DNA of 64,000 nt, from assembly GCA_964507275.1 (NCBI GenBank), contig CAZDPG010000001.1, forward strand, positions 276,577 to 340,576, written 5' to 3'. The notes beneath the pieces are model-generated. The model did not search any database. It saw nothing but the letters and a program-made list of their open reading frames with translations, and had not been told where the DNA came from. The DNA comes from an uncultured Candidatus Saccharibacteria bacterium (GTDB lineage: Bacteria; Patescibacteriota; Minisyncoccia; Phycocordibacterales; Phycocordibacteraceae). Positions 19,037 through 52,611 of the stretch are shown piece after piece. The translations under genes and the position numbers were made by a program. Position 1 is the stretch's first letter; every line of letters starts with the position of its first letter.

Positions 19037-19048
19037 GATAGCACTAAG

Positions 19049-19121: not shown

Positions 19122-19157
19122 GCGTGAGATATGCTATCACGCTCAAAAAATATTTCA

Positions 19158-19228: not shown

Positions 19229-19253
19229 TGATCCTTTCAAGAGACGTTCTCTG

Positions 19254-19324
19254 TCGGGCCGCCGGGAATCGAACCCGGTCTATACGAACCCGAATCGTAC
19301 GTACTACCGGCATACTCCGGCCCG
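19254..19324 (-). tRNA. tRNA-Pro (anticodon CGG)
   Basis: 71-nt cloverleaf with the same acceptor as the GGG isoacceptor, anticodon loop TTCGGGT and T-loop TTCGATT. Confidence 0.85.
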
Positions 19325-19343
19325 ACACAGAACACCTCCCGAG

Positions 19344-19417
19344 TGCGCTCCGCAGGATTCGAACCTGCGACCTTTCGCGTGTGAAGCGAACGCTCTAACC
19401 AACTGAGCTAGGAGCGC
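19344..19417 (-). tRNA. tRNA-Val (anticodon CAC)
   Basis: 74-nt cloverleaf GCGCTCC-TA-GCTC-AGTTGGTTA-GAGC…, anticodon loop TTCACAC, T-loop TTCGAAT. Confidence 0.9.
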
Positions 19418-20781: not shown

Positions 20782-20829
20782 AGTATATGTTCAATTCCCC
20801 GCATGTACCACGATTATCAACAAGTCCCA

Positions 20830-21957: not shown

Positions 21958-22035
21958 GTATGTGGAAGTATAGCAACCCGAGAGGCGCTTAACATGCAGA
22001 GACAGCGGGAGTGTGTGAACAAGTTAGATGTCGCT

Positions 22036-22926: not shown

Positions 22927-22989
22927 AAATCCAAAGAAGAAGACCCACGCGCGCGGAGGCGGAGGGTCTTTGGCAACATGCCGAATTGT

Positions 22990-23598
22990 TTACTGGATCC
23001 GATACTTCATCAGCTCACGGACGATGAGTCCGGAGCCCGCGCGATCGCCATCATCGGAGAAGGTTCTTTTGACGAAGTTCTTGACGGCCGGAGCGTACCA
23101 CCATATGTCGGTGATGGTGCCACTTGAAATCGCGCCGAAGCCAGCCGACCCGGTGTACTTGTTCACGAATACGACTTTAAAAGCATCGAACGTGCCTGCT
23201 GGCACTTCGATCTTCTCGATTGCAACCACTTCGCGCGTGACGTTGAAATCCCAGTGCAGCCCTTGTGCATCATCGCTCGCCTTGTACGACTCCTTGCCAA
23301 TCTTTATCGGAAAAGTGAAATCGAGACTCTTGGCGGCAGTCGTTACGCCCCCTTTATCCTTCCCGAAGGGAACCTTCTGCCCGCCGATATCGGCAGTGAA
23401 CCCGCCCGTCGCAACGACGTCTATCACCGTCACCGAAAACAGCGAACTCGGATTACTCCTCCTGGTGTCGAGATAGGAGTATTCCCACGTATCGCCCACA
23501 TGACGATCTGGCAGATCCGCTTGCTGGACGAGGTCCTGGGCACTGACTGGCATGATTGCAGCAAACGCAAGTGTGATAACGGCTATAAGTGCTTTCAT
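22990..23598 (-). CDS. Secreted hypothetical protein (cleavable signal peptide)
   Basis: MKALIAVITLAFAAIMPVSAQD is a Sec signal with an AxA site, followed by a beta-rich mature part. Confidence 0.55.
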   Translation of the reverse strand: MKALIAVITLAFAAIMPVSAQDLVQQADLPDRHVGDTWEYSYLDTRRSNPSSLFSVTVIDVVATGGFTADIGGQKVPFGKDKGGVTTAAKSLDFTFPIKIGKESYKASDDAQGLHWDFNVTREVVAIEKIEVPAGTFDAFKVVFVNKYTGSAGFGAISSGTITDIWWYAPAVKNFVKRTFSDDGDRAGSGLIVRELMKYRIQ

Positions 23599-23715
23599 GG
23601 CTTTCCTCTCTTTTTATCGTGTCGAGTTACAAACAACCGCAGAGCAACACGCCCTCACGATTTCCAGAAGCTATTGTACACAATTTACTAAGTCTGTCAA
23701 GTCCCCTCGTTATTG

Positions 23716-24963
23716 TTATTTGAATGTCTCTTCCAGTGCAAAATCCTTATCGGTCCACCCGTCTTTCGCGACGAGGAATGCGTGCAGTGTAGGACTCCGA
23801 CGAGCAACCGCGGCGATGTTTTCTCTTCGATAAGCATTCGAGAAATCAGTGCTCTTCGAGCCGATGAGTCTCCTCATAGCCCACGAATTCCTGCTCAGAG
23901 TGTTGAACGGCGGCACACCCGTCAGACGCCTAACCAGGGTTTCTATGGTGTCGTTATTTTCTGAAGTATTCTCCGAGAATCTGGCGAGATGCGCGGCATA
24001 CAGATACGTCGTATACGTGTCCAGGCCGACCGCCTCAGACTTGGCGATGGAGTGTGCGGTCTTGAGCATTTCTGTCGCATCCAGACCTGCGGCCTCAGGG
24101 AATTCATTCCCGAGATGATACAGCGTGATGCCGTCCATGATGATGGACAGATTATCCAAGCCAGCGACCGTGTCATATGCTGATATTCCACTTACGGAAG
24201 GAGAGAGTACCTTCTTGGCACCCGTAACAGCACGGCCGAGGAGCATGTGGGACAACGCCTTAAACTTCGCTAGAGTCTCCGCGTCCGTACCCGGTGTCCG
24301 AGAGATATACATGTAGTAGCTTCCGATTATCAAAGAGGCGTTGGCTGACGCAGCGAAAGCGTCTTCCCTCTCGCTCAGGGCTACGAGGTAGCTCGCGGCG
24401 AATCTCGTCTTCTGCCCGGAAGTTATCCCTTCGGCAGAAGCCGCCAGCTCTCGAGGGAAGAACACTGTCTCCGCAACTGATCTGAATTGCTGCAGGAATG
24501 GAGAGGTGGTTACTGCAGGAATGAGAATCCGCGGATCATCGACCGCATCATTGATGAGGAAGAACGCAGCGACGCTCTTGAATGACTCTGCGTTTACACT
24601 GTCTGAATCGAGAATCTTGAGCAGATAGGCAACGTTTTCCCGCGTGGCGCCAAAAGAGGCCGCGAGTCGGGACAAATCAAACAACCGAGAGACTTCATCG
24701 ATGGTTTCTGCCTTGAGCGTATCCGCTTTCGGTAGCCTGCTCAGAATGCTTGCGTCTGCTCGCTGTATCGCCTGGAGATATTCCATGTTGTGCTGCTCTA
24801 TGAATATATCGCTTCCCCTTACTTCTTCACTAGTTTCGGAAGGGGCTCCCGCGATATTAATGTTAACGTCCTCCGATACTTTCTGGTAATACAGGAACGC
24901 TCCGACGGCGATGGAGCTTACCAAGACGACTATGACGGACCCCACCAATAATCGATTGTTCAT
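23716..24963 (-). CDS. Membrane-anchored hypothetical protein (415 aa)
   Basis: N-terminal TM anchor followed by a large extracytoplasmic domain with no recognisable motif. Confidence 0.5.
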   Translation of the reverse strand: MNNRLLVGSVIVVLVSSIAVGAFLYYQKVSEDVNINIAGAPSETSEEVRGSDIFIEQHNMEYLQAIQRADASILSRLPKADTLKAETIDEVSRLFDLSRLAASFGATRENVAYLLKILDSDSVNAESFKSVAAFFLINDAVDDPRILIPAVTTSPFLQQFRSVAETVFFPRELAASAEGITSGQKTRFAASYLVALSEREDAFAASANASLIIGSYYMYISRTPGTDAETLAKFKALSHMLLGRAVTGAKKVLSPSVSGISAYDTVAGLDNLSIIMDGITLYHLGNEFPEAAGLDATEMLKTAHSIAKSEAVGLDTYTTYLYAAHLARFSENTSENNDTIETLVRRLTGVPPFNTLSRNSWAMRRLIGSKSTDFSNAYRRENIAAVARRSPTLHAFLVAKDGWTDKDFALEETFK

Positions 24964-25604
24964 GCGGTTTTCCTAAAGACAATAGGTGTCATACGAAGAG
25001 AGCTACCGACCGCTCGACATATCGGCATACCGATGTACATCACCGTTCTTCCGAACAGGGATCCGGTCGTCTCCACTCCCATACGATATGCCATCTCCTT
25101 TGCCCATGGGAGCGCGAATAGCGCAACGAATGAGGTCGCTATGGAGGAAGACTTCATGAGGTGCACCACGGTCGGTGCCCACGCGTGATACCCGACCACG
25201 GTGTTAGGGTCCGATACCGAGAGCCGTCGCCCAAACGCTTGATCCGCACGCCAGACGCGCTCAGGCATAAGTCCCTGTCGGTACAGTTCCGTACATATGA
25301 CAGACCCGCCACCACCGCCACCACCGCCACCACCGTCAGCCCCGCAGGCGGCCGCCCCACTACTTGCACTGCCACAGTCACCAGATGCCGAACCGTCGCC
25401 GCCACCGAAACTGGCATCGCTACTTGGCGTTTCAGCGAGCGCGAACGGTATGTCTCCCGGAGAGCTGCCATGCGACAACACGTAATCAGAAACTCCCTTG
25501 TTCCCAACAAATACCGACATAAGTGCGGCTACCACCAAGGCGACGAGGTACACAGAGCCTTTTATTATTTTCTTCAGCATGGAAACGTACTTAGATATTC
25601 CCAC
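24960..25604 (-). CDS. Membrane-anchored protein with a Gly11 linker and a conserved-looking C-terminal domain
   Basis: TM anchor, a Ser/Gly/Asp-rich spacer with an 11-residue polyglycine run, then a compact C-terminal domain. The 4-bp overlap with the upstream gene indicates an operon. Confidence 0.45.
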   Translation of the reverse strand: MGISKYVSMLKKIIKGSVYLVALVVAALMSVFVGNKGVSDYVLSHGSSPGDIPFALAETPSSDASFGGGDGSASGDCGSASSGAAACGADGGGGGGGGGGSVICTELYRQGLMPERVWRADQAFGRRLSVSDPNTVVGYHAWAPTVVHLMKSSSIATSFVALFALPWAKEMAYRMGVETTGSLFGRTVMYIGMPICRAVGSSLRMTPIVFRKTA

Positions 25605-25689: not shown

Positions 25690-27351
25690 ATGGGTAATGG
25701 CGCGGATGATTTAGTATCCCTCAAGCAGAAGATTGCACAAGTGTGTTTTGTGAGCGAAAAAGAATACGAGCAATTGACCTATGGGCTAATAGTTTCTACG
25801 TGGTTATTCAATATAAAGAAAGTGCTGCTTGAAGCTGGCACATTGGACAACATATCGGCACTCCTTTTAGAGAAGGTGCGCGCACGCGAAGACTTCCAGA
25901 TAGGAGGGGTGGAGAGTGCCGCCATCCCACTCATCTCGGGAATCATAATGAAGTCGAAAGAGCGCGGCATACCGGCAAACGGGTTTTTCATACGGAAGGG
26001 CCGCAAGAAAGGAGGGATGTTCCAGACTATCGAGGGATCGCTCGGTGACGAAAGAATCGTCCTAGTGGACGACATCATGAATACAGGGAAGAGCTTCATC
26101 AAGCAAATCGAAGTGCTTGAATCCGTCGGGAAGAAAGTCGATACTGTCCTCTCCATCATCAGGTTCCGCGATATGGCCTATTACGAATATTTTCATAAGC
26201 GCGGCATTATGGTGTTATCGCTCTTTACGCTCGATGATTTCAAGGATCTCATCCGTGTAGAGAATATCGTCGACAAGCAGAAGAGCGCCCCGACGATGCC
26301 CTTCCAAGTGATGTGGCGATTTCAGAGCGAGAAGCCGAATTATTTCTATGTGGTGCCTAAGTCAGCGCCAGCAATCGATGACACGCGTATCTATTTCGGG
26401 AGCGACGTCGGCGTCTTCTGGGCGCTGAACCAAGAGGACGGGTCGGTGGCATGGAAACACACTGTCATGTTCGGCGCGGGAGGGAAGATGATATTTTCCT
26501 CTCCCGCCCTCTCCAATGATACCGTCTTCTTCGGCGCGTATGACGGAAATTTCTATGCGCTCGACAAAGAGACCGGGAAGAAGAAGTGGGTCTTCATGGA
26601 GGCTGACTGGATCGGCTCATCGCCCTGCATATCAGACAAGCTCGGGCTGGTGTATGTCGGTCTGGAATTCGGCCTCTGGAAGAAACAGGGCGGTATCGCT
26701 GCGCTCTCCATGGGGACCGGCAAGAAGGTCTGGGAATACCCGATGCCCGGCCTCACCCACTCGTCTCCTGCGTATTCGGCACGGCACAATGTCGTGGTGT
26801 GCGGATGCAACGACAACACGGTCTACGCTCTGCATGCCAAGACTGGCGCGCTCCTGTGGAAGTTTGAGACCGGGGGCGAGGTGAAAACATCTTTCGCATT
26901 CGACGAGAAGCGCGGATTGGTCTGCTTCGGCTCATTCGACACGCATCTCTACATACTGAATGTGAAGACGGGCGCGCTCGTGCACAAGATACCGACCGGC
27001 GAAGCGATCTACTCGACGCCGCTCGTATACGGCTCATACGTCTATATCGCATCGCTCGACAAGAATCTCTACTGCGTACATCTGGACACGGGGGCCGTGG
27101 CGTGGAAATTCGCGACCAACGGGAGGATCTTCTCCTCGCCTGAAGTGATAGACGGCAAGATCTATATCGGCTCTAACGATGGCCGGCTGTACGAGCTCGA
27201 TGCGCAGACCGGGACGTGTGTCGGATTCTTCCAGACGGCTGAACGTATCACGAACAAGCTCGCTTACAACAAGCAAACGCGAAATGTTTTCCTCCCGACC
27301 TTTGCGAACGAAATATATTGCCTGACGAGGAAGCATCCTGCAAAACAATAA
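25690..27351 (+). CDS. Fusion protein: type I phosphoribosyltransferase (orotate-PRTase-like) domain plus PQQ-type beta-propeller repeats
   Basis: PRPP-binding motif ERIVLVDDIMNTGKSF and an OPRT-like flexible loop FFIRKGRKKGG. At least 7 repeats of the G.DG.(V/L)YALD..TG...WK PQQ-propeller type follow. Confidence 0.8.
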   Translation: MGNGADDLVSLKQKIAQVCFVSEKEYEQLTYGLIVSTWLFNIKKVLLEAGTLDNISALLLEKVRAREDFQIGGVESAAIPLISGIIMKSKERGIPANGFFIRKGRKKGGMFQTIEGSLGDERIVLVDDIMNTGKSFIKQIEVLESVGKKVDTVLSIIRFRDMAYYEYFHKRGIMVLSLFTLDDFKDLIRVENIVDKQKSAPTMPFQVMWRFQSEKPNYFYVVPKSAPAIDDTRIYFGSDVGVFWALNQEDGSVAWKHTVMFGAGGKMIFSSPALSNDTVFFGAYDGNFYALDKETGKKKWVFMEADWIGSSPCISDKLGLVYVGLEFGLWKKQGGIAALSMGTGKKVWEYPMPGLTHSSPAYSARHNVVVCGCNDNTVYALHAKTGALLWKFETGGEVKTSFAFDEKRGLVCFGSFDTHLYILNVKTGALVHKIPTGEAIYSTPLVYGSYVYIASLDKNLYCVHLDTGAVAWKFATNGRIFSSPEVIDGKIYIGSNDGRLYELDAQTGTCVGFFQTAERITNKLAYNKQTRNVFLPTFANEIYCLTRKHPAKQ

Positions 27352-27380: not shown

Positions 27381-27387
27381 TGTTCTG

Positions 27388-27460
27388 TGGACCGTACAGG
27401 ATTCGAACCTGCGACCCCCTCATTGCAAATGAGGTGCTCTACCAACTGAGCTAACGGCCC
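27388..27460 (-). tRNA. tRNA-Ala (anticodon TGC)
   Basis: 73-nt cloverleaf GGGCCGT-TA-GCTC-AGTTGGTA-GAGC, anticodon loop TTTGCAA, G3:U70, T-loop TTCGAAT. Confidence 0.9.
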
Positions 27461-36407: not shown

Positions 36408-36523
36408 TACTCCCTACCATACCGTATTGCATGGGTATTGACAAATGGTAATAATGGTATATTCTTGTATACGGAGCTATTTGAAGCCGATTCATCCCGA
36501 ATCGGTACCACTCACGGAGGTCT

Positions 36524-37066
36524 TTGACCATGAAAACGAATACCAAGATCGCCGTTTTGGCGATGACAGTACTGCTTGGCGCATGCGCCGGCCCTGGCCC
36601 GCGTGTCAATATCTCGGTGACCATGCCGGACGGCGAAAGAGCAACGATTGTCGCCCACCAGCAGGCGGTCCCGGATTGGATGCTCGATCGCGGCAAACTT
36701 GCTCTGAACTACATCGTGAAGGGTGAGGTGGGCGCGAAACAGCTCGCTGCCGTTGCCGAAACTGAACGCGCGTGCCGCATTTACACCGACACGGTGCGTC
36801 CGAGCAATCTGGTCGGCGTCGTATCGAGCGGTGTGCTCTACGCCGCCGCTGGCTTCATCGGTGTCGGTATCGGATCGCAAGCCTTCACGGGCGCTGTCCA
36901 AAGCGAGTATGCAACATACGGCGCATGGGCAAGCGGCGTTTCCGGTACGGCAAACGGTGTGGTCACTCTCGGCGGTCAGACGTATACCTTCGAGAACTGC
37001 GGTCGAGAAGTGCTCGGCCTGTTCCCCGGATACGAAGTGCGGGTGCTCAACAAGAGCCCCTACTGA
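36524..37066 (+). CDS. Lipoprotein (hypothetical)
   Basis: Signal peptide with lipobox LLGAC and a Gly/Ala-rich mature domain. The Arg/Cys-rich antisense ORF was rejected. Confidence 0.6.
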   Translation: MTMKTNTKIAVLAMTVLLGACAGPGPRVNISVTMPDGERATIVAHQQAVPDWMLDRGKLALNYIVKGEVGAKQLAAVAETERACRIYTDTVRPSNLVGVVSSGVLYAAAGFIGVGIGSQAFTGAVQSEYATYGAWASGVSGTANGVVTLGGQTYTFENCGREVLGLFPGYEVRVLNKSPY

Positions 37067-37087
37067 CCTGGTCTTTCTTGAAACACA

Positions 37088-37130
37088 ATGGGCACGAACC
37101 TCACGGTTCGTGCCCATCTTCTTTTTTTAT
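37088..37130. terminator. Strong rho-independent terminator (13-bp perfect stem + T9), probably bidirectional between convergent genes
   Basis: atgggcacgaacc-tcac-ggttcgtgcccat followed by cttcttttttttat. Confidence 0.7.
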
Positions 37131-37132
37131 AT

Positions 37133-37639
37133 CTAGTTAGCCTTCTGCACCTTCACGAGCTCCACTTCGAAAATGAGCGTGGAATTCGCAGGAATGACAT
37201 TCCCGATGGCCTGGTCGCCATATGCATAGGCAGCAGGGATGACGAGCTTTCGCTTGCCGCCCTCCTTCATGCCAGCAACGCCGAGGTCCCAACCCTTAAT
37301 CACCTGCCCTGCTCCGAGAGTAAACGTGAAGCCGGCAGTACCATGATTAGCGGAAGCATCGAAGACTGTTCCGTTAGTGAGTGAACCGACGTAGTTCACG
37401 GTCACACTATCGCCAGCCTCGGCGGTTGCGCCCGTGCCGACCGTCTCATCAAGTGCCTGGAGTTGGTCGGAATTTTCTGTAGTCATAGAAGTTGATTCGA
37501 TTTGAGTATTAGTAGATCCTAGTGAAGCTTCGTCCGCCGCCGCTGGCTGTCCCCACGGTAGAAGACCCGGGAAGATGAAGAATAGCGCGACGACGGCGAG
37601 TGCGAGTGCTACGGCGATGCCAGTCTGAGTTGGTTTCAT
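37133..37639 (-). CDS. FKBP-type peptidyl-prolyl cis-trans isomerase (secreted or anchored)
   Basis: FKBP core GDSVTVNYVGSLTNGTVFDAS…GQVIKGWDLGVAGMKEGGKRKLVIPAAYAYG. Confidence 0.85.
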   Translation of the reverse strand: MKPTQTGIAVALALAVVALFFIFPGLLPWGQPAAADEASLGSTNTQIESTSMTTENSDQLQALDETVGTGATAEAGDSVTVNYVGSLTNGTVFDASANHGTAGFTFTLGAGQVIKGWDLGVAGMKEGGKRKLVIPAAYAYGDQAIGNVIPANSTLIFEVELVKVQKAN

Positions 37640-37654
37640 ATCAATGGATTAGAG

Positions 37655-37963
37655 TTATGCAGATTGAAAATCTTTGAACCGTTTGACCTCCTCGGCAACA
37701 GCGGTCCTGACGACCGCCTCGTGCCCAGGTACCTCCTGATCAAGGAACATCTTCAGCGCAGAAGCATCACCCGCTTCTGCGAGCTTCGCGAACGCTTCGC
37801 GCTTATCTTCGGCAAGATTCCCCAGCACCGCTAGCGTCGCCGCCTTGAGGGCGACTTCGCCGAACTGCGCGATAAGTGGCTTTTGCTCTTCGATGGGAAG
37901 GGCGGATATGCCGAGATCGGCAGCGATGGCGGCGGTTAATTCATCTTGCATAGGGGATATCAT
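37655..37963 (-). CDS. Small hypothetical protein, last gene of the VirB4-like/VirB6-like operon
   Basis: 102-aa Ala/Glu-rich ORF starting 9 nt after the upstream gene ends. Confidence 0.4.
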   Translation of the reverse strand: MISPMQDELTAAIAADLGISALPIEEQKPLIAQFGEVALKAATLAVLGNLAEDKREAFAKLAEAGDASALKMFLDQEVPGHEAVVRTAVAEEVKRFKDFQSA

Positions 37964-37972
37964 ATCACAGGG

Positions 37973-40363
37973 TTATTTGATAACTTTCTCAAATTCATCA
38001 GGGCCTGGAGCTTTCATAAACTCCCTGAAGAAACCAAGAAACCCGGTTGTCTGTACAGGGGCACCAGAAGGAACCACCTTCCCGTCTACGAGGTGCCACG
38101 GAATGCGGTGCTCCCCATTATCGTCAGCGGCATAGATAATCTTGTCTGGATTCTTGATGAGATAGTCGAGAATCATCTTCCCCCGCTCTACCGGCGAGCC
38201 GCCATACGCAAATATACGATTAGCGCTATCGGCATACAAATGCGGCACTGCTGCCGGCACTTCCACGCCGAACGAGTTTACGACGCTATGGGGTTCCATA
38301 ATCGGAGCCCGAACCGCTTCAGCAGTCCCTTGATTGGCGACATCCTGCGCAGGTGTAAGGTCCACGGTCTTTACCGGTTCTGGAGAGACGATCTGCTCAG
38401 GAGCAATAGTATGTGGCATCGCCGTCTCTACCGGAGCGGGCGTTTGTTCATTCACGAGTCCCGTCAATGGGTTTATCTCTTGCGGAGCGGCCGACTGCGT
38501 ACCGAAGTACAAATCGAGCGCTTCCGGCGTCGGTGCTGGCGATTCGACATGCGGTATGGTGAACGCCGTAGGTGTCACCGCGACATGCGCCGGAGCAACC
38601 TGCAGCTCACGGCCGGCATCAGAGAGGAAGAGCTCGCCTCGTGCGCCAATCGTCATCTGCGCATCCGGCGTGATGAGGACACTCGAACCATCAGCGCGGA
38701 AGAACTGATGCTTCGAATCAGATGCAATCTCATGTACGAGTTTATCTATAGAATCCTCATCCGCTGCGAGAAGCCGCGCGAGGTCACTCTCGGGATTCGC
38801 ATTTGCAGGCAGCTCGACGCCTTTCGTATGCAAATCTTCCCAAAGTCGCTTCATCATATATTCATAGCCGTGCCCGGCCGACGCTTTAACGGTCGGCATT
38901 TCGATTGTCGTAGGAGCTGTTGCTTCCGGTGCTGTAGTTGGAGCGGCTTCGCCCACTACGGGAGCATGGATTTCTGGCCCTGGCGCGGTGTCAGGAGCGA
39001 GCGTTTTGTTCCCGGTCATGCTCCCAATCCACCTGAGTATCGCCTCATCCTTCTGAGGCTGGTTCGCGAAATCGATAGCCTCCTTCACCCCCTCGACCAA
39101 AAGCATCATGGCCCCGGTCATACCAGCCGTATAGAGTATCGCCTTCCCCATCGCCTTTTCTTTCTCCCATTTTCCATCCTGTGCAGACTTTTCGTATTTC
39201 AAGAACATTGCTGATAATCCAGCGATACGCTGTGCGCCGATGCCTGCCCCGGTAAAGACGAGCCCCAGAGCCGCCGGGATCGACGCTCCTGCTGCTGCCG
39301 AGACGCCCATCCCGATGCCGAGACTGAGACCAACGGCAACCTTACTCTTCCATCCGAGTTTCCCGTACCACTCCCCAAGTGATCGGAAACCTTTTTCTGT
39401 TTTAGCGGCTATGGCCGTATCCAGTTCGCCCAATCGCCCAGAGAGATGTGTCTTCATGCGTTCAGGTCCTCCAGAGACTTTCTCTTTCGCGCCCTCGCCG
39501 AACTTTCCGACGAGCTCGCGCAATTTCTGCTTCCACTCTTTCGGTGTACCGTCCGCCATGGGGACGTCTTCTGTCTCGCCTTCCGCGGCGTCTGCGACAA
39601 ACTCTCCTCTCGTTCGAGCTTTCTTGTTTCTGTTTATTTGTTCTTGCACGTCTGCTTCAAGTGCATTTCTTGCTCCGGCGCCGAATAACACATCCATGTC
39701 AGCCTGCATCTCGGGGTTAATGGTGTATTGTGACGCATTCAGAGTACTTTCGTCTACGCTCGGTACCGAATGCGGATCAAAAGGTTCTTCTGTCTGGGCG
39801 GCTGACTCCGAAAGGTCAATATCGAGACCACGTCGTGCGATGGACTTCTTCGCAGAGCGCACATCGGAACTCGTGGGAGACTTCTTGCTTTTCTTCTTGC
39901 TTCGCGCCACATCAGCGCGCAGTTTTTCCAGATACCCTTCCCGTCTGGATTCAGGGAGTCTCTCATACAGCCGCAATGCGTCGGCAGGAATCTTGTCGCC
40001 AAATATTGCTGAGAGTTCGCTCGGAACGTTCGCGACATCTTTCGACACGGCCTCAGGCATTGAAGACCCATCTGCTGCTCCCTGCTTACTAAGCAATTCA
40101 AAGACTTCGTTCCCGACAGATACACCAAGCTCCCTTTCTTCTTTCCGTCGTGCCTCGGCCTCTTGCATCGCGAGCCCTATTGCTGTCGACTGTGCCTCTG
40201 ATTTCGCGTCGGCAATAGGGGTTGCTATAGGTAGTTCCCCGCCATTTCTCTTAGCATCAACGGCGGCTCTTCTATCTTTCTTATTTCGCCCACCATTCTT
40301 CTCAGAAGAATCGTCGTCATCTCGTGGAGGATAGTCTTTTCTAGGGTTTATACGTTCAGACAT
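37973..40363 (-). CDS. Large (796 aa) VirB6/TrbL-like membrane protein with long low-complexity flanks (tentative)
   Basis: A central cluster of 3-4 TM helices sits between charged, Pro/Ala-rich arms. The start lies 6 nt after the upstream ATPase stop. Confidence 0.5.
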   Translation of the reverse strand: MSERINPRKDYPPRDDDDSSEKNGGRNKKDRRAAVDAKRNGGELPIATPIADAKSEAQSTAIGLAMQEAEARRKEERELGVSVGNEVFELLSKQGAADGSSMPEAVSKDVANVPSELSAIFGDKIPADALRLYERLPESRREGYLEKLRADVARSKKKSKKSPTSSDVRSAKKSIARRGLDIDLSESAAQTEEPFDPHSVPSVDESTLNASQYTINPEMQADMDVLFGAGARNALEADVQEQINRNKKARTRGEFVADAAEGETEDVPMADGTPKEWKQKLRELVGKFGEGAKEKVSGGPERMKTHLSGRLGELDTAIAAKTEKGFRSLGEWYGKLGWKSKVAVGLSLGIGMGVSAAAGASIPAALGLVFTGAGIGAQRIAGLSAMFLKYEKSAQDGKWEKEKAMGKAILYTAGMTGAMMLLVEGVKEAIDFANQPQKDEAILRWIGSMTGNKTLAPDTAPGPEIHAPVVGEAAPTTAPEATAPTTIEMPTVKASAGHGYEYMMKRLWEDLHTKGVELPANANPESDLARLLAADEDSIDKLVHEIASDSKHQFFRADGSSVLITPDAQMTIGARGELFLSDAGRELQVAPAHVAVTPTAFTIPHVESPAPTPEALDLYFGTQSAAPQEINPLTGLVNEQTPAPVETAMPHTIAPEQIVSPEPVKTVDLTPAQDVANQGTAEAVRAPIMEPHSVVNSFGVEVPAAVPHLYADSANRIFAYGGSPVERGKMILDYLIKNPDKIIYAADDNGEHRIPWHLVDGKVVPSGAPVQTTGFLGFFREFMKAPGPDEFEKVIK

Positions 40364-40369
40364 ACGAAA

Positions 40370-43129
40370 TTAGTTCGAGAGGTATCGCTCGCGAATCATA
40401 TTCTCAACTGTAGCACGGTCGCGGCCGTAGGTGAGCGAGGAGAGGTGCACGAGATCGTCTATCTGTGCGGGGTTCGTTTGTGGCAAATTCGGCGTCTTCA
40501 TATCAAAAGGCTTCTGCGGTATGCCTCCCACGAGTATCCGTACATAAGCGTTCCTATTCTCGATATTCACGAAATCGAGCGATTCAAAAACGGGAGCGAA
40601 CTGTTTCGCGAAGAATTCCGCGTCCTCCTCCCCCACGCGGAAGACCGCCATATTCCCGACGTTGCCGAAGACGGCACTGCGCGTTTTCTCTTCGATCTGA
40701 CTCAGGAACTGATGTGCCATAGAGAGGGCGAGTTTGTACTTGCGGGCTTCGGAGAGGATGCCTGGGATGGAGTCGGTAGTGACGTTCTGGAATTCGTCGA
40801 TGTAGAGATAGAACGGCGGGTATGGAGTACGCGGATTATCTGCGCGAGACAGGGCTGCCATGAAGAGCTTCCCGACAATAATGAGGCCAAGCAAGTTCGC
40901 ATTACGTTCACCAAGCCGACCCTTCGACAGATTCACGAGGAGAATCTTCTTCGAGTCCATCACCTCGCGGAAATTGAATGAGGACTTCTGCTGCCCCACG
41001 ATCGGACGTATGAAGTCGTTTGCAGTGAAGTCATCGAACTTGTTCGTAATATACGGGACGATATTCTCAAGAGCGGCATCACCGCCCGCCTTCGTCGCGA
41101 TGTCATTCCAGAATTGATTCACGACTGGGTTCATACTCTTCGCAAGTTTCTGTCGGCGGAACTCGCTATTGGAGAGCACACGAGCGATGTCGAGCATCGT
41201 CGAGCCACTCGCCGGATCCTCCATCACGAGCAGAGTCGCATTACGGAAATACTGTTCGAACGCCGGGCCCATGCTCTCAGGCACGTCACCGTAGAGCCGT
41301 TTGAAGATCATCAGGAGTTCATTCACGATGAACGTCTTCTGCTCAGGGCGCGCCATATCGTATTCGAGGAAGTTGAGTCCGAAGGGACGAGATAGGTCGG
41401 CAGGATCGAAATAGATGACATCCTGATACCGCTCGGGAGGCACCGCAGCAAGGATGTCGAGGATGTCAGAGCCGTGAGGATCAATGTAGCAACACCCGTC
41501 GCCATTCTGGATGTCCTGGATGATCATACTCTTCATGAGTCCAGTCTTACCGGTACCGGTCTGCCCGACGACATAGAGATGACGCAAACGATCCTCGGGA
41601 CTCAAGTGTATCTCGGTCACCGATCCTCGATACTCATTGACCCCAAACAGAGACCCTTCGCTCGGAAGCCCGAGCGGGGCTGGCGCGTGTGTGAAGCGCG
41701 ACTGCTTCAAATGCGGCGAGCTCTCAATGCCAGTCGGCGGGAAGTGATACAAGGTCGTGAGTTCACGAAGTGATAGCGGGAGTGCCTCCGCGCTCGGCAG
41801 GCGGAAGGAGAAATCTTCGAGCACCCGCGGCGCATGGCGAGCGTCCACGCGCACAAACTGCAACCGATTACCCTGCGTGTTCGCGAATTGATTGAACGCC
41901 GCTTCAAGATCACCGAGCACCTGATTCGCAACACCAGTGTCGCCCGAGGAGACGGCAAGACGCAACGTCGTACCGACGATGGGTGTCGCGATCTTCTTCT
42001 CCACTTGCTCAATATGCGCTTTATTCGCTTCAATCTGCCGCGTCTCGGCTTCCTTCGCTTTCTCGACATCCTTCGGTTTATTCCCGAAGAGCGTCTTGCT
42101 GAAGTCTCGCGCGATTTCGCCAATCATCGTCTCTGGCGTGTTGAATGCCGTGCCCTGCTTCTCGCCCTTGCGGAGCGCCTGGAGAATCTTCCGGTAGTGC
42201 TTCACGTGTCGCTCGCCGCGAGGTTCTATGATGATTTGAAGTGCTGCTCCTTCGCCAGTGTGTTCTATCTTCGCGAACGCATTCATGACGGCGTTTATCG
42301 GGTCATAATCGAAATCAGTGTATTCCTTGAGTGGAAGCGCCGGATTCTCTGCGAGGCGCGCGACCGATGCGAGCGCGGTTCCATTCGTCGCAAAAATGTT
42401 GTAGTCGTGCGGCTGAGGCATGAGATGCGCATCGGGGAATATCGCCAAGAGCTGCTTCTCGAAAAGATTACGCTTCCCGTTCGGCACCGCGGCATAGAAT
42501 TGGAGCTCAGGACTATCAGCGGGCACCGCAAGCTCGAGCGCGAAATAATTCGGTTCACCGTGCGTTGCGTCAGCGACCGAGAGGAGCCCGGCATAAAATT
42601 GCTCCATACCGGAGATGAGCTCCTTGAGCGTTTTCGCACGCGTGTGCGGTTCACCGCCCTTCGGACCGGGGAGTTCTATCTCATACAGCGTCATATGGAG
42701 CGCCTGAAAGCGCGGTGCTTTTTCGTCGAAACCAAGCGCGGGCAATCCAGCGGCAATATAGCGTACGAGATAGCGATGGAAATCGTCTGCAACATGCGGG
42801 TCGCCGAGCTTCTCAAGCACCGCGAGCGCATTCTTGATTCCCTTCTCTTCCATCGTCTTCTGCAGACTCCTCACGGCCTGCTCGCTTCCACCCATATTGA
42901 GATCAGCAAGTATCGCCTCTGCTTCGCTTATTTTCGTCGCTTCGCTTATGCGATATTCGGGCGCAAGCATTTCCTCTCCGGCTGCATGATGTGCATGCAG
43001 ATGCTCGACGATGACCTGTTCGCGTTCCGGCACACCGACCTCAGCAAGCTCCGCCTCCTTTGCAGCAACTTGCTCGCGCAGATATGCAAGCTCTTCCTCA
43101 GGCGTCGATAGTTTCGGTACTGATTCCAT
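40370..43129 (-). CDS. VirB4/TrbE-like (AAA_10/DUF87-type) P-loop ATPase, conjugation/T4SS-like
   Basis: Walker A LYVVGQTGTGKTGLMKS in the C-terminal half and Walker B FYLYIDEFQN, with a long N-terminal non-ATPase domain. The layout matches VirB4/TrbE rather than VirD4. Confidence 0.7.
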   Translation of the reverse strand: MESVPKLSTPEEELAYLREQVAAKEAELAEVGVPEREQVIVEHLHAHHAAGEEMLAPEYRISEATKISEAEAILADLNMGGSEQAVRSLQKTMEEKGIKNALAVLEKLGDPHVADDFHRYLVRYIAAGLPALGFDEKAPRFQALHMTLYEIELPGPKGGEPHTRAKTLKELISGMEQFYAGLLSVADATHGEPNYFALELAVPADSPELQFYAAVPNGKRNLFEKQLLAIFPDAHLMPQPHDYNIFATNGTALASVARLAENPALPLKEYTDFDYDPINAVMNAFAKIEHTGEGAALQIIIEPRGERHVKHYRKILQALRKGEKQGTAFNTPETMIGEIARDFSKTLFGNKPKDVEKAKEAETRQIEANKAHIEQVEKKIATPIVGTTLRLAVSSGDTGVANQVLGDLEAAFNQFANTQGNRLQFVRVDARHAPRVLEDFSFRLPSAEALPLSLRELTTLYHFPPTGIESSPHLKQSRFTHAPAPLGLPSEGSLFGVNEYRGSVTEIHLSPEDRLRHLYVVGQTGTGKTGLMKSMIIQDIQNGDGCCYIDPHGSDILDILAAVPPERYQDVIYFDPADLSRPFGLNFLEYDMARPEQKTFIVNELLMIFKRLYGDVPESMGPAFEQYFRNATLLVMEDPASGSTMLDIARVLSNSEFRRQKLAKSMNPVVNQFWNDIATKAGGDAALENIVPYITNKFDDFTANDFIRPIVGQQKSSFNFREVMDSKKILLVNLSKGRLGERNANLLGLIIVGKLFMAALSRADNPRTPYPPFYLYIDEFQNVTTDSIPGILSEARKYKLALSMAHQFLSQIEEKTRSAVFGNVGNMAVFRVGEEDAEFFAKQFAPVFESLDFVNIENRNAYVRILVGGIPQKPFDMKTPNLPQTNPAQIDDLVHLSSLTYGRDRATVENMIRERYLSN

Positions 43130-43271
43130 TTGTTTCTAGTATAAGGCATCCGTGCTCATATATTGAGCATTCGGTTGTGCATCTCCTCGAAATTAGGTAG
43201 AGTCTGACCGGTCTGAACATTCGTTTGAACCTTGTCATTTTCCACTCACAATAAAGAAAGCGAGGTGCGCT

Positions 43272-44285
43272 GTGCAAAACTACTTCATCGGCGGTGTCGG
43301 GATGAGCCTACCCATTATGGTCGGGGCTGGTGCCTGCAAGACCCCTATGAGCACCCTTCCGTATATGCGGCACGATGTTTCGGTGGGAGCTGTTTCCACC
43401 GGTTCATACACGCCCCAAATACGGACCGGCAACGAAGGGGTGCTGTCCTGGCCGGAAGATGCTTCTGAGTTCATGCAGGAGGTCGTTGGCCTCAATTCGT
43501 TCGGCATGCCGAACATGGGAAACGAGCGAGCGGCGGCAGAACTCAAGCGCTTCAGCCTCGCACACCCGCTCATCGCAAGTGTCGCCGGATTCTCTGTTGA
43601 CGACTACGTTGCAGGGGTACGAGCATTCGATAGCGTTCCGTGCGTTTCCGCCATTAAGGCAAATCTCGGATGCCCGAACGTACACGGCAAGCCGGTACCT
43701 ATCGCCTATGACCCCGACTCGCTCCTGGAAATCCTCGAGGCAATGTTCCAACTGCAACCCACGAAACCAATCTGGCTCAAGCTGTCGCCATACATTACCG
43801 CGAAGGAGCGCGACAATCTTCAATCGACCTATCCGCTCATCGATTTCTCCAACGTACCAGTGGTTGATCCGGGTTTTCTCGGCGACATCCTGAGCATCGT
43901 ATGGGAATATCAGCACTTTGTCCGGGCGGTCGTCTTCAGCAACACGCTGCCAAACGTCACCATCCTTGGTGAATCTGGGAATCCAGTCACGACGCCGAAC
44001 GGCGGCAAGGCTGGCCTTTCCGGAAAGATACTCAGGCCGATCTCTATCAACTTGATACGGCAAGCGGCAACCATGCTTCCGGGCCATGTTGATCTAATCG
44101 GCTCTGGCGGCGTCACGCATGGAGATCATGCAGTCGAGTATTTCGCCGCCGGTGCACAAGCGGTGTTCTGCACGTCCGGTCCTTTCTGGGCTGGGAACAA
44201 CCCGCGATTCTTCGCGGACATGCTGTCCGGAAGCGAACGTCTTCAGGAATACCTTTCGCAACATTCCCAACACAAGGAGGACTGA
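43272..44285 (+). CDS. pyrD: Dihydroorotate dehydrogenase family protein (class 1-like)
   Basis: FMN/substrate TIM-barrel blocks (NSFGMPN…, GSGGVTHGDHAVEYFAAGA). Directly adjacent to pyrC. A GTG start is possible. Confidence 0.8.
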   Translation: MQNYFIGGVGMSLPIMVGAGACKTPMSTLPYMRHDVSVGAVSTGSYTPQIRTGNEGVLSWPEDASEFMQEVVGLNSFGMPNMGNERAAAELKRFSLAHPLIASVAGFSVDDYVAGVRAFDSVPCVSAIKANLGCPNVHGKPVPIAYDPDSLLEILEAMFQLQPTKPIWLKLSPYITAKERDNLQSTYPLIDFSNVPVVDPGFLGDILSIVWEYQHFVRAVVFSNTLPNVTILGESGNPVTTPNGGKAGLSGKILRPISINLIRQAATMLPGHVDLIGSGGVTHGDHAVEYFAAGAQAVFCTSGPFWAGNNPRFFADMLSGSERLQEYLSQHSQHKED

Positions 44286-44288
44286 ACC

Positions 44289-45392
44289 ATGACGATGAAA
44301 GCATATCCGCCCTGCGTACTCGACATGGAGTACGCAGGGTCGACACTTACCATCACCCGGCCGGACGATTGGCATCTGCATCTGCGCCACGGCCGATACA
44401 TGGCCGATATCGTCGGCGACTCGGCACGGCGCTTCGGTCGGGCACTTATCATGCCTAACCTGAAGCCGCCGATTACGACCACCCTCCAAGCGTGGGCGTA
44501 CTACGAAGAAATCCGCGCGGAGGTGAAAAAACTCGATCTGGGTCACTTCGAACCCTTGATGACGCTCTATCTCACGGACAACACACCGCCCGACGAGATC
44601 AATCGCGCTAACGGAAGCACCTTCATGAAGGCGGTCAAGTACTATCCCGCCGGTGCGACCACCAACTCTGATTCCGGCGTGACCGACATCAGGCTGGTGT
44701 ACCCCGTACTGGAGCGGATGCAGAAGCTCGGCATGGTGCTGTGCGTTCATGGCGAAGTCACCGACCCCGACGTCGACATCTTCGACCGCGAAGCCGTCTT
44801 CATCGACCGTGTGCTCGAGCCGCTCCGCAAAGACTTCCCCGCTCTCAAGATCGTGCTCGAGCACGTCACCACGAGGCAGGGTGTGGAGTTCATCATCCAC
44901 GAAGAAAGGAATCGCCATCCGACCGCCGCAACCATCACAGCGCACCACCTGCTCCTGAACCGGAACGCAATCTTCAAGGGCGGCATCAATCCGCACCATT
45001 ACTGCTTGCCAGTATTGAAACGCGAAGAGCATCGCCAAGCGCTTCTGTGGGCAGCGACGAGCGGCAGCCCGTTCTTTTTCCTCGGCACTGACTCGGCACC
45101 GCATTTGCGCGGCACCAAGGAATCCGCGTGCGGCTGCGCCGGATGCTTCACGGCCCATGCAGGCATCGAGCTCTATGCCGAGGTATTCGAATCGGCTGGC
45201 AAGCTCGATATGCTCGAGAGTTTCGCGAGCGAGTTCGGCGCAGACTTCTATGGACTTCTGCCGAACACGGACACGATCACACTCGTGAAAGAGTCGTGGG
45301 AAGTCCCTGGACAGCTGCCGTTCGGCGACCACGTCGATGGCGTCGTCCCTCTCCGGGCCAGTGAGATGATGAAGTGGAAGATACAGGAGTAG
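44289..45392 (+). CDS. pyrC: Dihydroorotase (type II)
   Basis: [12 protein letters not shown] metal-binding motif and a conserved C-terminal Asp region. Confidence 0.9.
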
Positions 45393-49801: not shown

Positions 49802-50290
49802 TCAACCGTGGACAAGACCTCCGGCGTAGGACAGGAGGCTGGTGACTTGATAGACCGCACTCCCTTTCGAGGGAACCTTATGGACTTTCTCGGAACCACA
49901 GAACGCTTCGAACCGCCCGGGGAACGGTCTGTTCCCATACGCCCGCAAACCGCGTTCGTAGTGGATCTGCCCCCGCCCGCCGATGAATTCCCTTCTCGCG
50001 TACGAGTGCAGAAGGACATGCCGGAGGAAAGGCAAATCCCGTTTCCTGCAGCGACCTTCGCAGTGCATGGACCAAATCTGCGTCCCTCTGAAGGAAATGC
50101 TCATCCTGGCATGCACGAGGACGGTCGACTTGAAGTCGTTGACAATCTTGAGCATCCCATAAAAGCGAAGACCGCCTTCTTGGTGGAAAAACGTCTGCCC
50201 AGACCATCCCGCCTCGGACGACAGCGCTCGGCGCATCGCCCTGAAGAAAAACAATTTTGTTTGTTCGACTGCTTCTTTCGGTATTTCCAT
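49802..50290 (-). CDS. Degenerate IS200/IS605-family (RAYT-like) transposase-like protein; possibly an inactive remnant
   Basis: About 163 aa counted from the internal Met. Segments …TQIWSMHCEG…RHVLLHS…RAYGNRPFPGRFEAFC loosely resemble the RAYT/TnpA HuH and GRF regions. An 11-bp perfect hairpin sits 20 nt upstream. The long Arg-rich N-terminal extension in the ORF track is likely spurious. Confidence 0.3.
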   Translation of the reverse strand: MEIPKEAVEQTKLFFFRAMRRALSSEAGWSGQTFFHQEGGLRFYGMLKIVNDFKSTVLVHARMSISFRGTQIWSMHCEGRCRKRDLPFLRHVLLHSYARREFIGGRGQIHYERGLRAYGNRPFPGRFEAFCGSEKVHKVPSKGSAVYQVTSLLSYAGGLVHG

Positions 50291-50311
50291 CTTGTTCTCC
50301 CGTTTTTGATG

Positions 50312-50337
50312 CATTGCACGATACCCATCGTGCAATG
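50312..50337. repeat. Perfect 11-bp inverted repeat hairpin (cattgcacgat-accc-atcgtgcaatg)
   Basis: Read directly. It lies between the rhodanese stop and the TnpA-like start, where IS200/IS605 elements carry their subterminal hairpins. Confidence 0.6.
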
Positions 50338-50379
50338 AGACTTCATCCAGAAATACTTTAATATGAATATGGCCTTGCG

Positions 50380-50634
50380 TCAACCCGCCACGACTTCCAT
50401 CGCTTCTTCGAGTCCTCCTATATTCACGGCATTCGTGAAGCCCGCTGATTGCAGGAGTGCACACGCATAGGCGGCTCGTGCGCCTGAGCGGCAATAGAGT
50501 TGGAGCTCTGCATCCCGCTCCACGAGCGCGAGCTCGCCGAAGTGTCCCTCGTCGAGGTCGCTGACCGGGATGTTCACAGCACCCTTGATGTGCCCCATCG
50601 AATATTCTTCAGGAGTTCGTACGTCGATAAGCAT
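50380..50634 (-). CDS. Single-domain rhodanese (sulfurtransferase-like)
   Basis: LIDVRTPEEYSMGHIKGAVNIP and the active-site loop CRSGARA. Confidence 0.8.
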   Translation of the reverse strand: MLIDVRTPEEYSMGHIKGAVNIPVSDLDEGHFGELALVERDAELQLYCRSGARAAYACALLQSAGFTNAVNIGGLEEAMEVVAG

Positions 50635-52524: not shown

Positions 52525-52540
52525 AGTCTCCTACACACAG

Positions 52541-52611
52541 CTGGGGGACAGGGAATCGAACCCCGATTAGATCCTTCAAAGGGACCTGTCCGACCATTAG
52601 ACGATCCCCCA
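52541..52611 (-). tRNA. tRNA-Gln (anticodon TTG)
   Basis: 71-nt cloverleaf TGGGGGA-TC-GTCT…, with a U1:A72 pair and G73 discriminator (Gln identity), anticodon loop CTTTGAA and T-loop TTCGATT. Confidence 0.85.

Follow-up and report, generated by a model that had tools for sequence, protein, structure and literature searches.

Type IV coupling proteins (T4CPs; VirD4, TrwB, TraD and TraG, together with DotL and Cag-beta) often act with a membrane partner and small acidic adaptors (DotM, IcmS/W, CagZ). A large part of bacterial diversity belongs to the Patescibacteria, which live attached to other cells, and how they exchange material with these hosts is largely unexplained. A 2025 survey found 5,713 VirD4-like T4CP homologues in 2,918 Patescibacteria genomes, about two per genome, only 148 of them near virB4; the role of these homologues, unlinked to a type IV secretion system (T4SS), was left open, and the authors raised their exaptation to another function (PMC12102498). 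The T4SS proper of Patescibacteria is a separate VirB4-centred cluster, often near dnaA, and the phylum has a distinct VirB4 clade of its own at another place in the genome (PMC12102498). Here we analysed a 64-kb stretch of DNA (contig CAZDPG010000001.1, positions 276,577 to 340,576; hereafter the window) from a small-genome bacterium of the candidate phyla radiation (CPR), as the initial annotation had recognised, and followed up a four-gene operon in it which encodes a 919-aa ATPase, a 796-aa membrane protein, a 102-aa acidic protein and an FKBP-type isomerase. The first two had been taken for a VirB4/TrbE-like ATPase and a VirB6/TrbL-like membrane protein, and the whole for a minimal T4SS-like apparatus. 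We consider it highly probable that the operon is an orphan T4CP-like module and not a VirB4/VirB6 T4SS. Overall, with a probability of about 0.5, we read it as the chromosomal operon of a Kaiserbacteria-like genome and a lineage-specific version of a CPR-wide module around an orphan T4CP-like ATPase, with an inferred membrane-docked coupling complex. The ATPase and its parts are the following:

40370..43129, minus strand: first operon gene, coding for a 919-aa soluble three-domain P-loop ATPase, DUF8128/T4CP-like (Pfam, NCBIfam, AlphaFold2, Foldseek)
42740..43129, minus strand: N-terminal helical domain, residues 1-130 (helices 10-127 in the AlphaFold2 model; hidden Markov model, HMM, of separate ~140-aa proteins)
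41690..42712, minus strand: alpha/beta domain corresponding to DUF8128, residues ~140-480 (precomputed PF26449; AlphaFold2)
40373..41662, minus strand: T4CP-type motor, residues ~490-919 (TrwB alignment, hhalign to TraD, Foldseek match to TrwB, AlphaFold2)
41543..41566, minus strand: P-loop GQTGTGKT, residues 522-529 (translation, TrwB alignment, conservation)
40784..40813, minus strand: Walker B motif FYLYIDEFQN, residues 773-782 (translation, TrwB alignment)

Judged by its sequence, the motor is of the coupling-protein (VirD4/TrwB/TraD/TraG) class and not of the VirB4 class. The Walker A motif, LYVVGQTGTGKTG, lies at residues 518-530, in the C-terminal half of the protein, and Walker B at residues 773-782, both as originally described. 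As in T4CPs, Walker A stands in the context RHLyVvGqTGTGKT and Walker B has the form hhhhDEF, with ARK and Q..Q motifs; after Walker B these read SEARKYK and AHQ..SQ, typical of coupling proteins. G522, G525 and K528 of the P-loop are invariant and G527 nearly so (at least 90%) in one alignment (A2), while in another (A3) G522-G525 and G527-K528 are invariant and T526 nearly invariant; D778, E779, R796, K797, Q807 and Q811 are family invariants around and after Walker B. In Pfam the 919-aa protein matched TraG-D_C with 25.6 bits against a cut-off of 22, and TrwB_AAD_bind and DUF87 more weakly, while CagE_TrbE_VirB (PF03135) gave no match at E<=1. Among 17 diverse relatives, TrwB_AAD_bind and TraG-D_C were each matched by 16 and T4SS-DNA_transf by seven; the VirB4-type families CagE_TrbE_VirB and AAA_10 were matched by none and by two (weakly), respectively. 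The top NCBIfam matches are TraD/VirD4 models, and the sole VirB4 model that matched, VirB4_plasma, scored 10.8 bits against a cut-off of 590. A profile search against PDB sequences returned TrwB (4e-4) and DotL as the best relatives. We further compared the family profile with F-plasmid TraC, TraD and TraG as reference proteins using hhalign; TraD aligned over residues 511-887, and TraC, the VirB4 protein of F, over 28 columns at the P-loop only, both with the low probability of a single-sequence template. Matches in plasmids (tblastn) were annotated as 'TraM recognition domain', 'T4SS DNA-binding domain', DUF87 or FtsK, and never as VirB4. The VirB4 identity is hence rejected at the sequence level (Pfam, NCBIfam, 17 relatives, F TraC), and profile searches against the VirB4 and VirB6/TrbL families, a check proposed with the initial annotation, matched neither. 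The opposite outcome, that the protein belongs to FtsK or HerA, was not borne out at the family level either, as FtsK_SpoIIIE reached only E 0.15 and DUF87 18.6 bits against a cut-off of 23.2, and HerA is a fold-level relative only. The PADLOC model mad8 matched at E 8.6e-13, alongside weak HerA/DndH matches. The ATPase sits in the T4SS-related branch of the FtsK/HerA superfamily; to this extent the VirB4/TrbE-like label stood, together with a weak fold-level resemblance to VirB4 (TrwK in Foldseek), whereas the VirB4 sequence families failed and the motor is of the coupling-protein type.

The AlphaFold2 model of the ATPase (predicted local distance difference test, pLDDT, 81.8) has three parts. 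Contigs L001-L003 encode an identical 919-aa product, for which, as for every homologue listed, DUF8128 (PF26449) is the precomputed annotation; the N-terminal 480 residues had no match among PDB sequences. Six helices (595-702) stand between Walker A and Walker B in the model, and the hhalign alignment to TraD spans this region, so that the motor is predicted to carry an all-alpha insertion, which may correspond to that of coupling proteins. In a Foldseek search of the PDB, TrwB matched the motor with a TM-score (target) of 0.65 and a root-mean-square deviation of ~5 A, and HerA and Cag-beta also matched. The lowest E-value, 1.5e-13 over ~900 aligned columns, went to full-length TrwK/VirB4 of R388; these alignments run through the DUF8128 region with TM-scores of only 0.26-0.32. 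Like VirB4, TrwK, TraC and CagE, the protein has a soluble two-lobed layout of ~800-900 aa, with an alpha/beta domain at the N-terminus and a RecA-like motor at the C-terminus; unlike them it lacks the sequence-family signal, gives low TM-scores and has no VirB3, VirB6 or VirB8 neighbours. It also departs from T4CPs in several ways: it has no transmembrane domain (its Kyte-Doolittle maximum, 1.57, is a buried helix of the RecA fold) and its relatives have one helix, not two; it has two added N-terminal domains (helical and DUF8128); it is unlinked to relaxase or virB4 clusters, in a core chromosomal context; and it falls below the curated NCBIfam cut-offs.

Homologues of the ATPase numbered more than 1,200 in a word-indexed search; an exhaustive search gave 20,631 cluster representatives at E<=1e-3, of which 5,277 reached E<=1e-30, and the family occurs in at least 509 species-level genomes. 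The closest homologues carry the labels Candidatus Kaiserbacteria, Paceibacterota or Minisyncoccota, and within Kaiserbacteria-like genomes the ATPase is 80-96% identical over its full length. We surveyed the genes within 8 kb on either side of the ATPase in 80 species loci. Where the record titles of these loci were informative, almost all of them gave a Patescibacteria lineage (Kaiser-, Zambryski-, Nomura-, Taylor-, Adler-, Niyogi-, Vogel-, Azam-, Moran-, Falkow- and Komeilibacteria, and others). The recurrent neighbours were ribosomal proteins S5 and L15, SecY, Adk, Ndk, DnaX, TGT and FKBP; in many Paceibacteria the ATPase gene comes after S5-L15-SecY-Adk and directly before Ndk, and elsewhere it lies beside DnaX or TGT. 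No relaxase or T4SS channel gene was found near the ATPase in the window or in the 80 loci, and no VirB3-, VirB8-, pilin- or hydrolase-like recurrent neighbour among the 12 of the 25 largest neighbour clusters that were judged by eye. The ATPase is a core chromosomal gene of a Patescibacteria-wide family in a housekeeping context; its place beside ribosomal-protein, secY, adk and ndk genes, with the T4SS of Patescibacteria encoded separately (PMC12102498), contradicts the idea of a minimal self-contained apparatus. In four Moranbacteria-like loci (L053, L056, L083, L084) a gene on the opposite strand directly after the ATPase codes for a conserved ~830-860-aa protein of no Pfam family, followed by genes for a ~200-aa protein, RmuC, a protein with three transmembrane helices and a glycosyl-transferase-4 (MraY-like).

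The family described here is very probably part of the T4CP homologues counted in the 2025 survey (PMC12102498), the two sets being likened by description. Both share the phylum, a VirD4-like signal and the lack of linkage to virB4, while the survey is without DUF8128, the 140-aa domain, the anchored and soluble forms, the linkage with DUF5663 and a large transmembrane protein, and the hypervariability (PMC12102498). Outside the phylum, gp156 of Bacillus phage G (JN638751.1, 90946-93066) is a full-length homologue with the DUF8128 region and the motor; this group (phrog_5156) matched the ATPase with E 1.9e-63 in the phrog search, 2e-33 in tblastn and 1.2e-39 in Foldseek against BFVD, at a TM-score of ~0.5. 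It resembles the ATPase in DUF8128 and motor over the full length and differs in its ~20-22% identity and its phage or plasmid context. Other full-length homologues are found in Firmicutes phages and plasmids, the phage ones being annotated 'DNA helicase or translocase'. On the Clostridium botulinum plasmid pRSJ20_1 (L086, 6435-9235) a ~133-aa gene overlaps the start of an 800-aa homologue, echoing the 140-aa partner found in the CPR (see below); otherwise the plasmid regions around full-length homologues in Streptomyces and Clostridium are unannotated or hypothetical and gave no information on context.

An N-terminal hydrophobic helix is present in 75 of 116 full-length ATPase representatives, and, as in T4CPs, such a helix anchors most family members in the membrane. 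The distribution follows length. In the short forms (~790-850 aa) a strongly hydrophobic N-terminal helix followed by basic residues was seen in 28 of 32 species loci, while none of the 41 long forms (at least 880 aa, the 919-aa ATPase included) has an N-terminal transmembrane helix. Immediately upstream of the ATPase gene, 17 of the 32 short-form loci and none of the 41 long-form loci have a gene for a ~140-aa acidic protein, and an HMM built from these 17 separate proteins matched residues 9-122 of the 919-aa ATPase with E 2.9e-12. Because the separate protein matches the N-terminus of the long form, and because the transmembrane helix is absent there, the long ATPase is a fusion in which the small ~140-aa partner took the place of the membrane anchor. 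Such a replacement implies a joint function of the ATPase and the ~140-aa partner, and for the soluble long form it implies some other way of reaching the membrane. Some family ATPases of 1,200-2,000 aa (P0202, P0208, P0223 and others) carry C-terminal tails of 900-1,200 residues, rich in Pro, Ala and Val and apparently disordered, which have no Pfam domain and end in a conserved 'GEVFVDE.GNV..GE' motif. We considered these extensions as 'Rosetta stone' fusions and rejected them, as they are disordered Pro/Ala/Val-rich tails without a Pfam domain.

The second operon gene encodes a membrane protein with the following parts:

37973..40363, minus strand: second operon gene, coding for the 796-aa hypervariable membrane protein (translation, alignment, AlphaFold2)
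39359..40363, minus strand: N-terminal arm, residues 1-335, charged and mostly disordered (composition, alignment, pLDDT), presumed cytoplasmic
39074..39352, minus strand: Gly/Ala-rich hydrophobic cluster, residues ~338-430 (Kyte-Doolittle, conservation)
38594..38908, minus strand: domain A, residues ~486-590, small and globular, between Pro/Ala-rich linkers (pLDDT 82-95), probably extracytoplasmic
37976..38281, minus strand: domain B, residues ~695-796, C-terminal and globular (pLDDT 76-95), with alternative cassettes in close relatives

We found 31 homologues of this protein, including an identical copy on 19 contigs (groundwater metagenomes, up to 673 kb). As the initial annotation had stated, it belongs to no recognisable family: searches of Pfam, NCBIfam, PHROGs and PADLOC gave no match, and its AlphaFold2 model had no fold match in the PDB at E<=0.001 (Foldseek). 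The described central hydrophobic cluster (residues ~340-430), flanked by charged, Pro/Ala-rich regions, was likewise confirmed. By alignment the protein is made of a variable charged arm (1-270), a conserved juxtamembrane and hydrophobic part (275-450), a Pro/Ala linker, domain A, a Pro-rich linker and domain B. The arm ends in a conserved juxtamembrane motif, EKGFRsLGEwYnKLGWKSK, and the residues invariant in the family are E323, R327, G330, E331, Y333, K341, Q378, R379, K401, E402 and W445. Three parts are confidently modelled (105-160, 490-590 and 695-796), the first being a small helical domain of the arm (residues ~105-160), and long helices run to the membrane. The cluster contains about three transmembrane helices (342-362, 363-388 and 408-426), all of them weak, with Kyte-Doolittle (KD19) peaks of 1.47-1.68. 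The distribution of positive charges suggests a topology with the N-terminus inside and the C-terminus outside.

That this protein is a VirB6/TrbL did not hold. The likeness to VirB6, TrbL and PrgH lies in its gene, for a membrane protein, adjoining that of a T4SS-superfamily ATPase, and 'extended' VirB6 proteins also bear large hydrophilic domains (PMC12857230). It has, however, ~3 weak Gly/Ala-rich transmembrane helices against at least five in those proteins, and no family, profile or fold similarity to them; in hhalign its profile did not resemble TraG, which is the VirB6-like protein of the F plasmid (probability 0.25%). We therefore rejected this identity.

The 796-aa gene is among the fastest-evolving in an otherwise conserved neighbourhood. 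The 796-aa protein shares 43% amino-acid identity with its counterpart on L004, the closest related contig, while its neighbours dihydroorotate dehydrogenase, the ATPase, DUF5663 (the 102-aa protein), FKBP and TGT are 90%, 96%, 98%, 95% and 87% identical, respectively. At the DNA level identity is 88% on both flanks and collapses exactly at the borders of the 796-aa gene (window 40354 to 37993), inside which only islands around domain A can be aligned. The N-terminal arm is 20-26% identical to that of L004, domain A 86% and domain B 25%, with 20-58% outside domain A. In one relative (P0123) a window-like N-terminus, transmembrane cluster and domain A are joined to a domain B of the type found in P0126. 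The gene is a cassette-like mosaic. Its reading frame is intact, its length similar and its modular plan kept, which argues against simple decay; the variability points to diversifying selection or recombination acting on an exposed protein.

The two remaining genes of the operon are:

37655..37963, minus strand: third operon gene, coding for the 102-aa acidic helical protein DUF5663 (PF18908); 98 aa if it starts at the ATG at 37951
37133..37639, minus strand: fourth operon gene, coding for a 168-aa FKBP-type peptidyl-prolyl isomerase (FKBP_C E 2e-32, 111.8 bits against a cut-off of 21.1)

On identical contigs the DUF5663 gene has been called from the ATG at 37951, which gives 98 aa, and PF18908 is precomputed for that product; the 102-aa translation scored E 2.8e-4 and 21.8 bits, just under the cut-off of 23.7. 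Of 15 syntenic homologues 13 matched DUF5663 in Pfam, and no WXG100 or other type VII secretion system (T7SS) family matched the small protein, for which DUF5663 was the only match. The DUF5663 profile also hit the tandem domains of staphylococcal protein A (E 6.8e-8, ~14 bits per domain), through its 'L..LP.EEQ..LI' helix; we set this aside as probably compositional or a three-helix-bundle resemblance and not homology. The FKBP (FKBP_C), which had been correctly recognised downstream on the same strand, has an N-terminal signal or anchor helix (Kyte-Doolittle peak 2.75, residues 1-34) and comes after DUF5663 in Kaiserbacteria-like loci. A membrane-anchored FKBP also stays near the ATPase without the large protein and DUF5663 (L008, 4321-4920) or in another order (L073, 4228-4698), and the link between FKBP and ATPase may be more than local synteny.

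Using an iterated profile, we found DUF5663 beside the ATPase in 16 of 84 loci, the window's own contigs L001-L003 included. At most of these loci a charged protein of 580-1,050 aa with a central Gly/Ala-rich transmembrane cluster directly precedes DUF5663. Two gene orders occur: ATPase, large protein, DUF5663 in Kaiserbacteria-like and some other loci, and large protein, DUF5663, 140-aa protein, ATPase in Moranbacteria-like loci, where the ATPases are only ~42-45% identical to the 919-aa ATPase. Domain A links the 796-aa family to the large proteins of L007, L012, L010 and L044 (hhalign 97%, E 7e-11), and a 'FR.LGE.YN.L..K.K' motif at the same position before the first transmembrane helix links it to the Moran-type large proteins (hhalign 79%, E 1.6e-5). 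Since the linkage persists through a rearranged gene order in distant lineages, this comparison of sequences argues that the large transmembrane protein, DUF5663 and the ATPase work together as a functional module.

We argued that, if the operon is an orphan T4CP-like module, the ATPase would assemble into a hexamer and, driven by ATP, act as a translocase on the cytoplasmic side of the membrane, and that in the Kaiserbacteria-like lineage the soluble ATPase would be docked there by the cytoplasmic arm of the 796-aa protein. DUF5663 could serve as a small acidic adaptor, by analogy with DotL-DotM-IcmS/W or Cag-beta-CagZ. Such a complex might recruit a macromolecular substrate, DNA or protein, and push it toward the envelope, either alone or by feeding a VirB4-type T4SS whose genes lie elsewhere. 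In the 796-aa protein, the extracytoplasmic domains would face outside on Pro-rich stalks, under diversifying or recombinational selection, and the exported FKBP may help to fold its Pro-rich segments and stalks. We put this docking and coupling mechanism forward tentatively, at a little less than even odds.

Several points weigh against this interpretation. The ATPase stays far under the curated NCBIfam cut-offs (SXT_TraD 49.3 bits against 366, conju_CD1115 34.1 against 250), and because the best Foldseek E-values go to VirB4, the family is not a canonical T4CP. Both the docking of the ATPase on the 796-aa protein and the adaptor role of DUF5663 are inferred from synteny only. The transmembrane helices of the 796-aa protein are weak (Kyte-Doolittle values of at most 1.68) and of low confidence in AlphaFold2, and the homology of the Kaiser-type and Moran-type large proteins hangs on a 25-column motif (79% probability). 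Many Paceibacteria loci, 16 of them with ndk directly downstream, have neither the large protein nor DUF5663 within 8 kb, and hence the ATPase may work without these partners, or they may be encoded elsewhere. Finally, the T4CP homologue of S. epibionticum is not essential, a result that is tied to the DUF8128 family by the T4CP label only (PMC12102498).

The ATPase could also be a housekeeping DNA translocase or helicase of the FtsK/HerA kind, serving segregation, recombination and repair, or DNA uptake, with the 796-aa protein as a mere membrane or divisome anchor. T4CPs, FtsK and HerA form one superfamily and HerA is among the top fold matches; there are weak matches to DUF87, FtsK_SpoIIIE and CedD; the gene has core-genome status and is extremely conserved; and it often has DNA-metabolism neighbours (UvrA/B/C in the window, DnaX in eight loci, RmuC, an AddA/UvrD-like helicase-nuclease), to which the helicase or translocase annotation of the phage homologues may be added. 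We nevertheless regard this as unlikely. No FtsK-gamma-like DNA-binding domain and no NurA or Mre11-Rad50 partner was seen, the DNA-gene neighbourhoods are lineage-specific and could be small-genome synteny, and the linkage with DUF5663 and a hypervariable, apparently surface-exposed protein would be left unexplained. Even if it were true, the ATPase would be a near-universal uncharacterised core gene of the phylum.

Two further explanations concern the partners, and both seem improbable to us. The 796-aa protein might be a variable surface protein or adhesin with no relation to the ATPase, the two sharing an operon in some lineages by incidental adjacency; many loci do have the ATPase without such a neighbour, and the large proteins are only weakly homologous in sequence. 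Yet the pair of large transmembrane protein and DUF5663 stays by the ATPase despite a permuted order and ATPases only ~42-45% identical, and in the window the genes are separated by 6 and 9 nt within one transcription unit. Alternatively, by analogy with type VII secretion, the locus could be dedicated to export or assembly, the ATPase secreting or inserting its neighbours, with DUF5663 or the 796-aa protein as the cargo. As in the type VIIb core (EssC, EsaA, WXG100), one operon combines an ATPase of the FtsK/HerA superfamily with a large membrane protein that has a long exposed stretch and with an acidic helical protein of ~100 aa; this linkage is kept in two gene orders, and the large protein is hypervariable, as expected if exposed. 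The likeness is a functional analogy only: we detected no T7SS homology, the ATPase has a single T4CP-type motor and not the multi-domain EssC layout, and DUF5663 has neither a WXG motif nor a WXG100 or T7SS family match and, at 98% conservation in the nearest relative, is unlike a host-facing effector.

The minimal T4SS-like apparatus of the initial annotation, with a VirB4/TrbE-type ATPase and a VirB6/TrbL-type channel protein, has on its side the lowest Foldseek E-value (full-length TrwK/VirB4), the two-lobed soluble form with the P-loop in its C-terminal half and a neighbouring gene for a membrane protein. It is very unlikely in view of the VirB4 profile results (CagE_TrbE_VirB 0/17, AAA_10 2/17 and weak, VirB4_plasma 10.8 bits against 590), the low VirB4 TM-scores and the P-loop-only alignment to F TraC, the few weak helices of a 796-aa protein that matches neither TrbL/VirB6, a known fold nor F TraG, the housekeeping neighbours without VirB3, VirB8, pilin or hydrolase look-alikes in the annotated clusters, and the separate VirB4-centred cluster that is the true T4SS of Patescibacteria (PMC12102498). 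A mobile, phage-derived or anti-phage defence element (a mad8/HerA-like ATPase with a variable partner) is hardly credible, since the mad8 and HerA/DndH matches, the full-length homologues in Bacillus phage G and others (phrog_5156) and the hypervariable adjoining gene are outweighed by the absence of a GC discontinuity across the locus, by housekeeping synteny fixed across hundreds of species, by an ATPase 80-96% identical across a candidate phylum-level lineage, the opposite of patchy defence genes, and by the absence of an integrase, repeat or tRNA boundary at the locus.

The ATPase family, as DUF8128 and among the 'T4CP homologues' (PMC12102498), and DUF5663 are already catalogued, and we found no literature naming DUF8128 or DUF5663. 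The architecture of the ATPase, the switch between anchored and soluble forms, the link to the 140-aa protein by fusion, the three- or four-gene module and the hypervariable partner appear to be undescribed in the searchable literature. For one family of the unlinked VirD4-like homologues, the locus thus gives a domain architecture, the 140-aa fusion link, the anchored-versus-soluble switch and the partners DUF5663 and a large membrane protein, and two DUFs (DUF8128 and DUF5663) gain a genomic context. An ultra-conserved motor with a hypervariable exposed partner makes for a testable hypothesis of a CPR-specific envelope machine. In its boldest form, which we think unlikely, the DUF8128 ATPase, the large Gly/Ala-rich transmembrane protein and DUF5663 would make up a so far unrecognised machine for translocation across the envelope, specific to the CPR. 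It would derive from a coupling-protein or VirB4-like ancestor but work independently of the VirB4-type T4SS; its hypervariable, cassette-shuffled surface part would mediate or specify host contact (or phage evasion), and the motor would move DNA or protein across the envelope.

The setting of the operon is given by these features:

43272-44285, plus strand: dihydroorotate-dehydrogenase-like gene, divergent, the next real gene upstream (DHO_dh match)
43130..43271, no strand: intergenic region of 142 bp (open reading frame, ORF, map), presumed operon promoter by position only
37088..37117, no strand: probable bidirectional intrinsic terminator, a perfect hairpin with a 13-bp stem, set between an A-run and a T-rich tract

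Mapping of minus-strand ORFs at 40370-43129, 37973-40363, 37655-37963 and 37133-37639 (919, 796, 102 and 168 aa) agreed with the genes, strand and coordinates of the initial annotation, as did the 6 nt from the ATPase stop to the start of the 796-aa gene; the spacers within the operon are 6, 9 and 15 nt. The ATPase and the 796-aa protein have many homologues, and the four ORFs are therefore real genes and not chance ORFs. Upstream the next real gene is divergent and the minus-strand ORFs are antisense, and a hairpin follows the last gene; the transcription unit therefore runs from 43129 to 37133 on the minus strand and comprises four genes. A promoter scan found no sigma-70 consensus promoter in the 142-bp spacer. 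The hairpin closes both the operon and a convergent 180-aa ORF (36524-37066, plus strand). We excluded the minus-strand ORFs at 43404-44087 and 44094-45332 as operon members, as they are Arg/Cys-rich, have no family match and lie opposite plus-strand genes, those for dihydroorotate dehydrogenase and an amidohydrolase; the ORF at 36512-37117 (minus strand), Arg/Cys-rich and antisense to a hypothetical gene, was excluded too. Such antisense Arg/Cys-rich ORFs are an artefact that arises from a GC content of 55%.

The remainder of the window holds housekeeping genes (LeuRS, SerRS, topoisomerase I, ATP synthase alpha and beta, DnaX, YchF, UvrA/B/C, TGT, D-Ala-D-Ala ligase), with six tRNA genes. Composition across the window showed no discontinuity, in GC or otherwise, at the operon; no integrase, repeat or tRNA boundary was found at its locus; and no VirB4, VirB6, pilin or relaxase gene was found in the 64 kb, the reported absence of a relaxase, a pilin or another T4SS part nearby thus holding for the whole window. 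Four tRNA genes are clustered at 19048-19417 on the minus strand (Ala-CGC, Pro-GGG, Pro-CGG, Val-CAC), and tRNA-Ala-UGC (27387-27460) and tRNA-Gln-UUG (52540-52611) stand alone. The 944-aa LeuRS (1891-4725, minus strand) has a NUDIX hydrolase domain (PF00293, E 2.7e-17, residues 381-501) directly after its editing domain, an unusual fusion. In a 553-aa protein (25690-27351, plus strand) a PQQ/BamB-type beta-propeller (E 5.9e-62) occurs together with a weak phosphoribosyl-transferase match (residues 111-153). At 49802-50494 (minus strand) there is a weak DUF5680 match (E 3.7e-4, 21.3 bits against a Pfam cut-off of 25). Five or six consecutive genes at 19981-25604 (minus strand) each encode a protein with a single N-terminal transmembrane or signal helix and no Pfam family, one with a weak TPR match, and this run is possibly a cluster of CPR-specific surface or secreted proteins.

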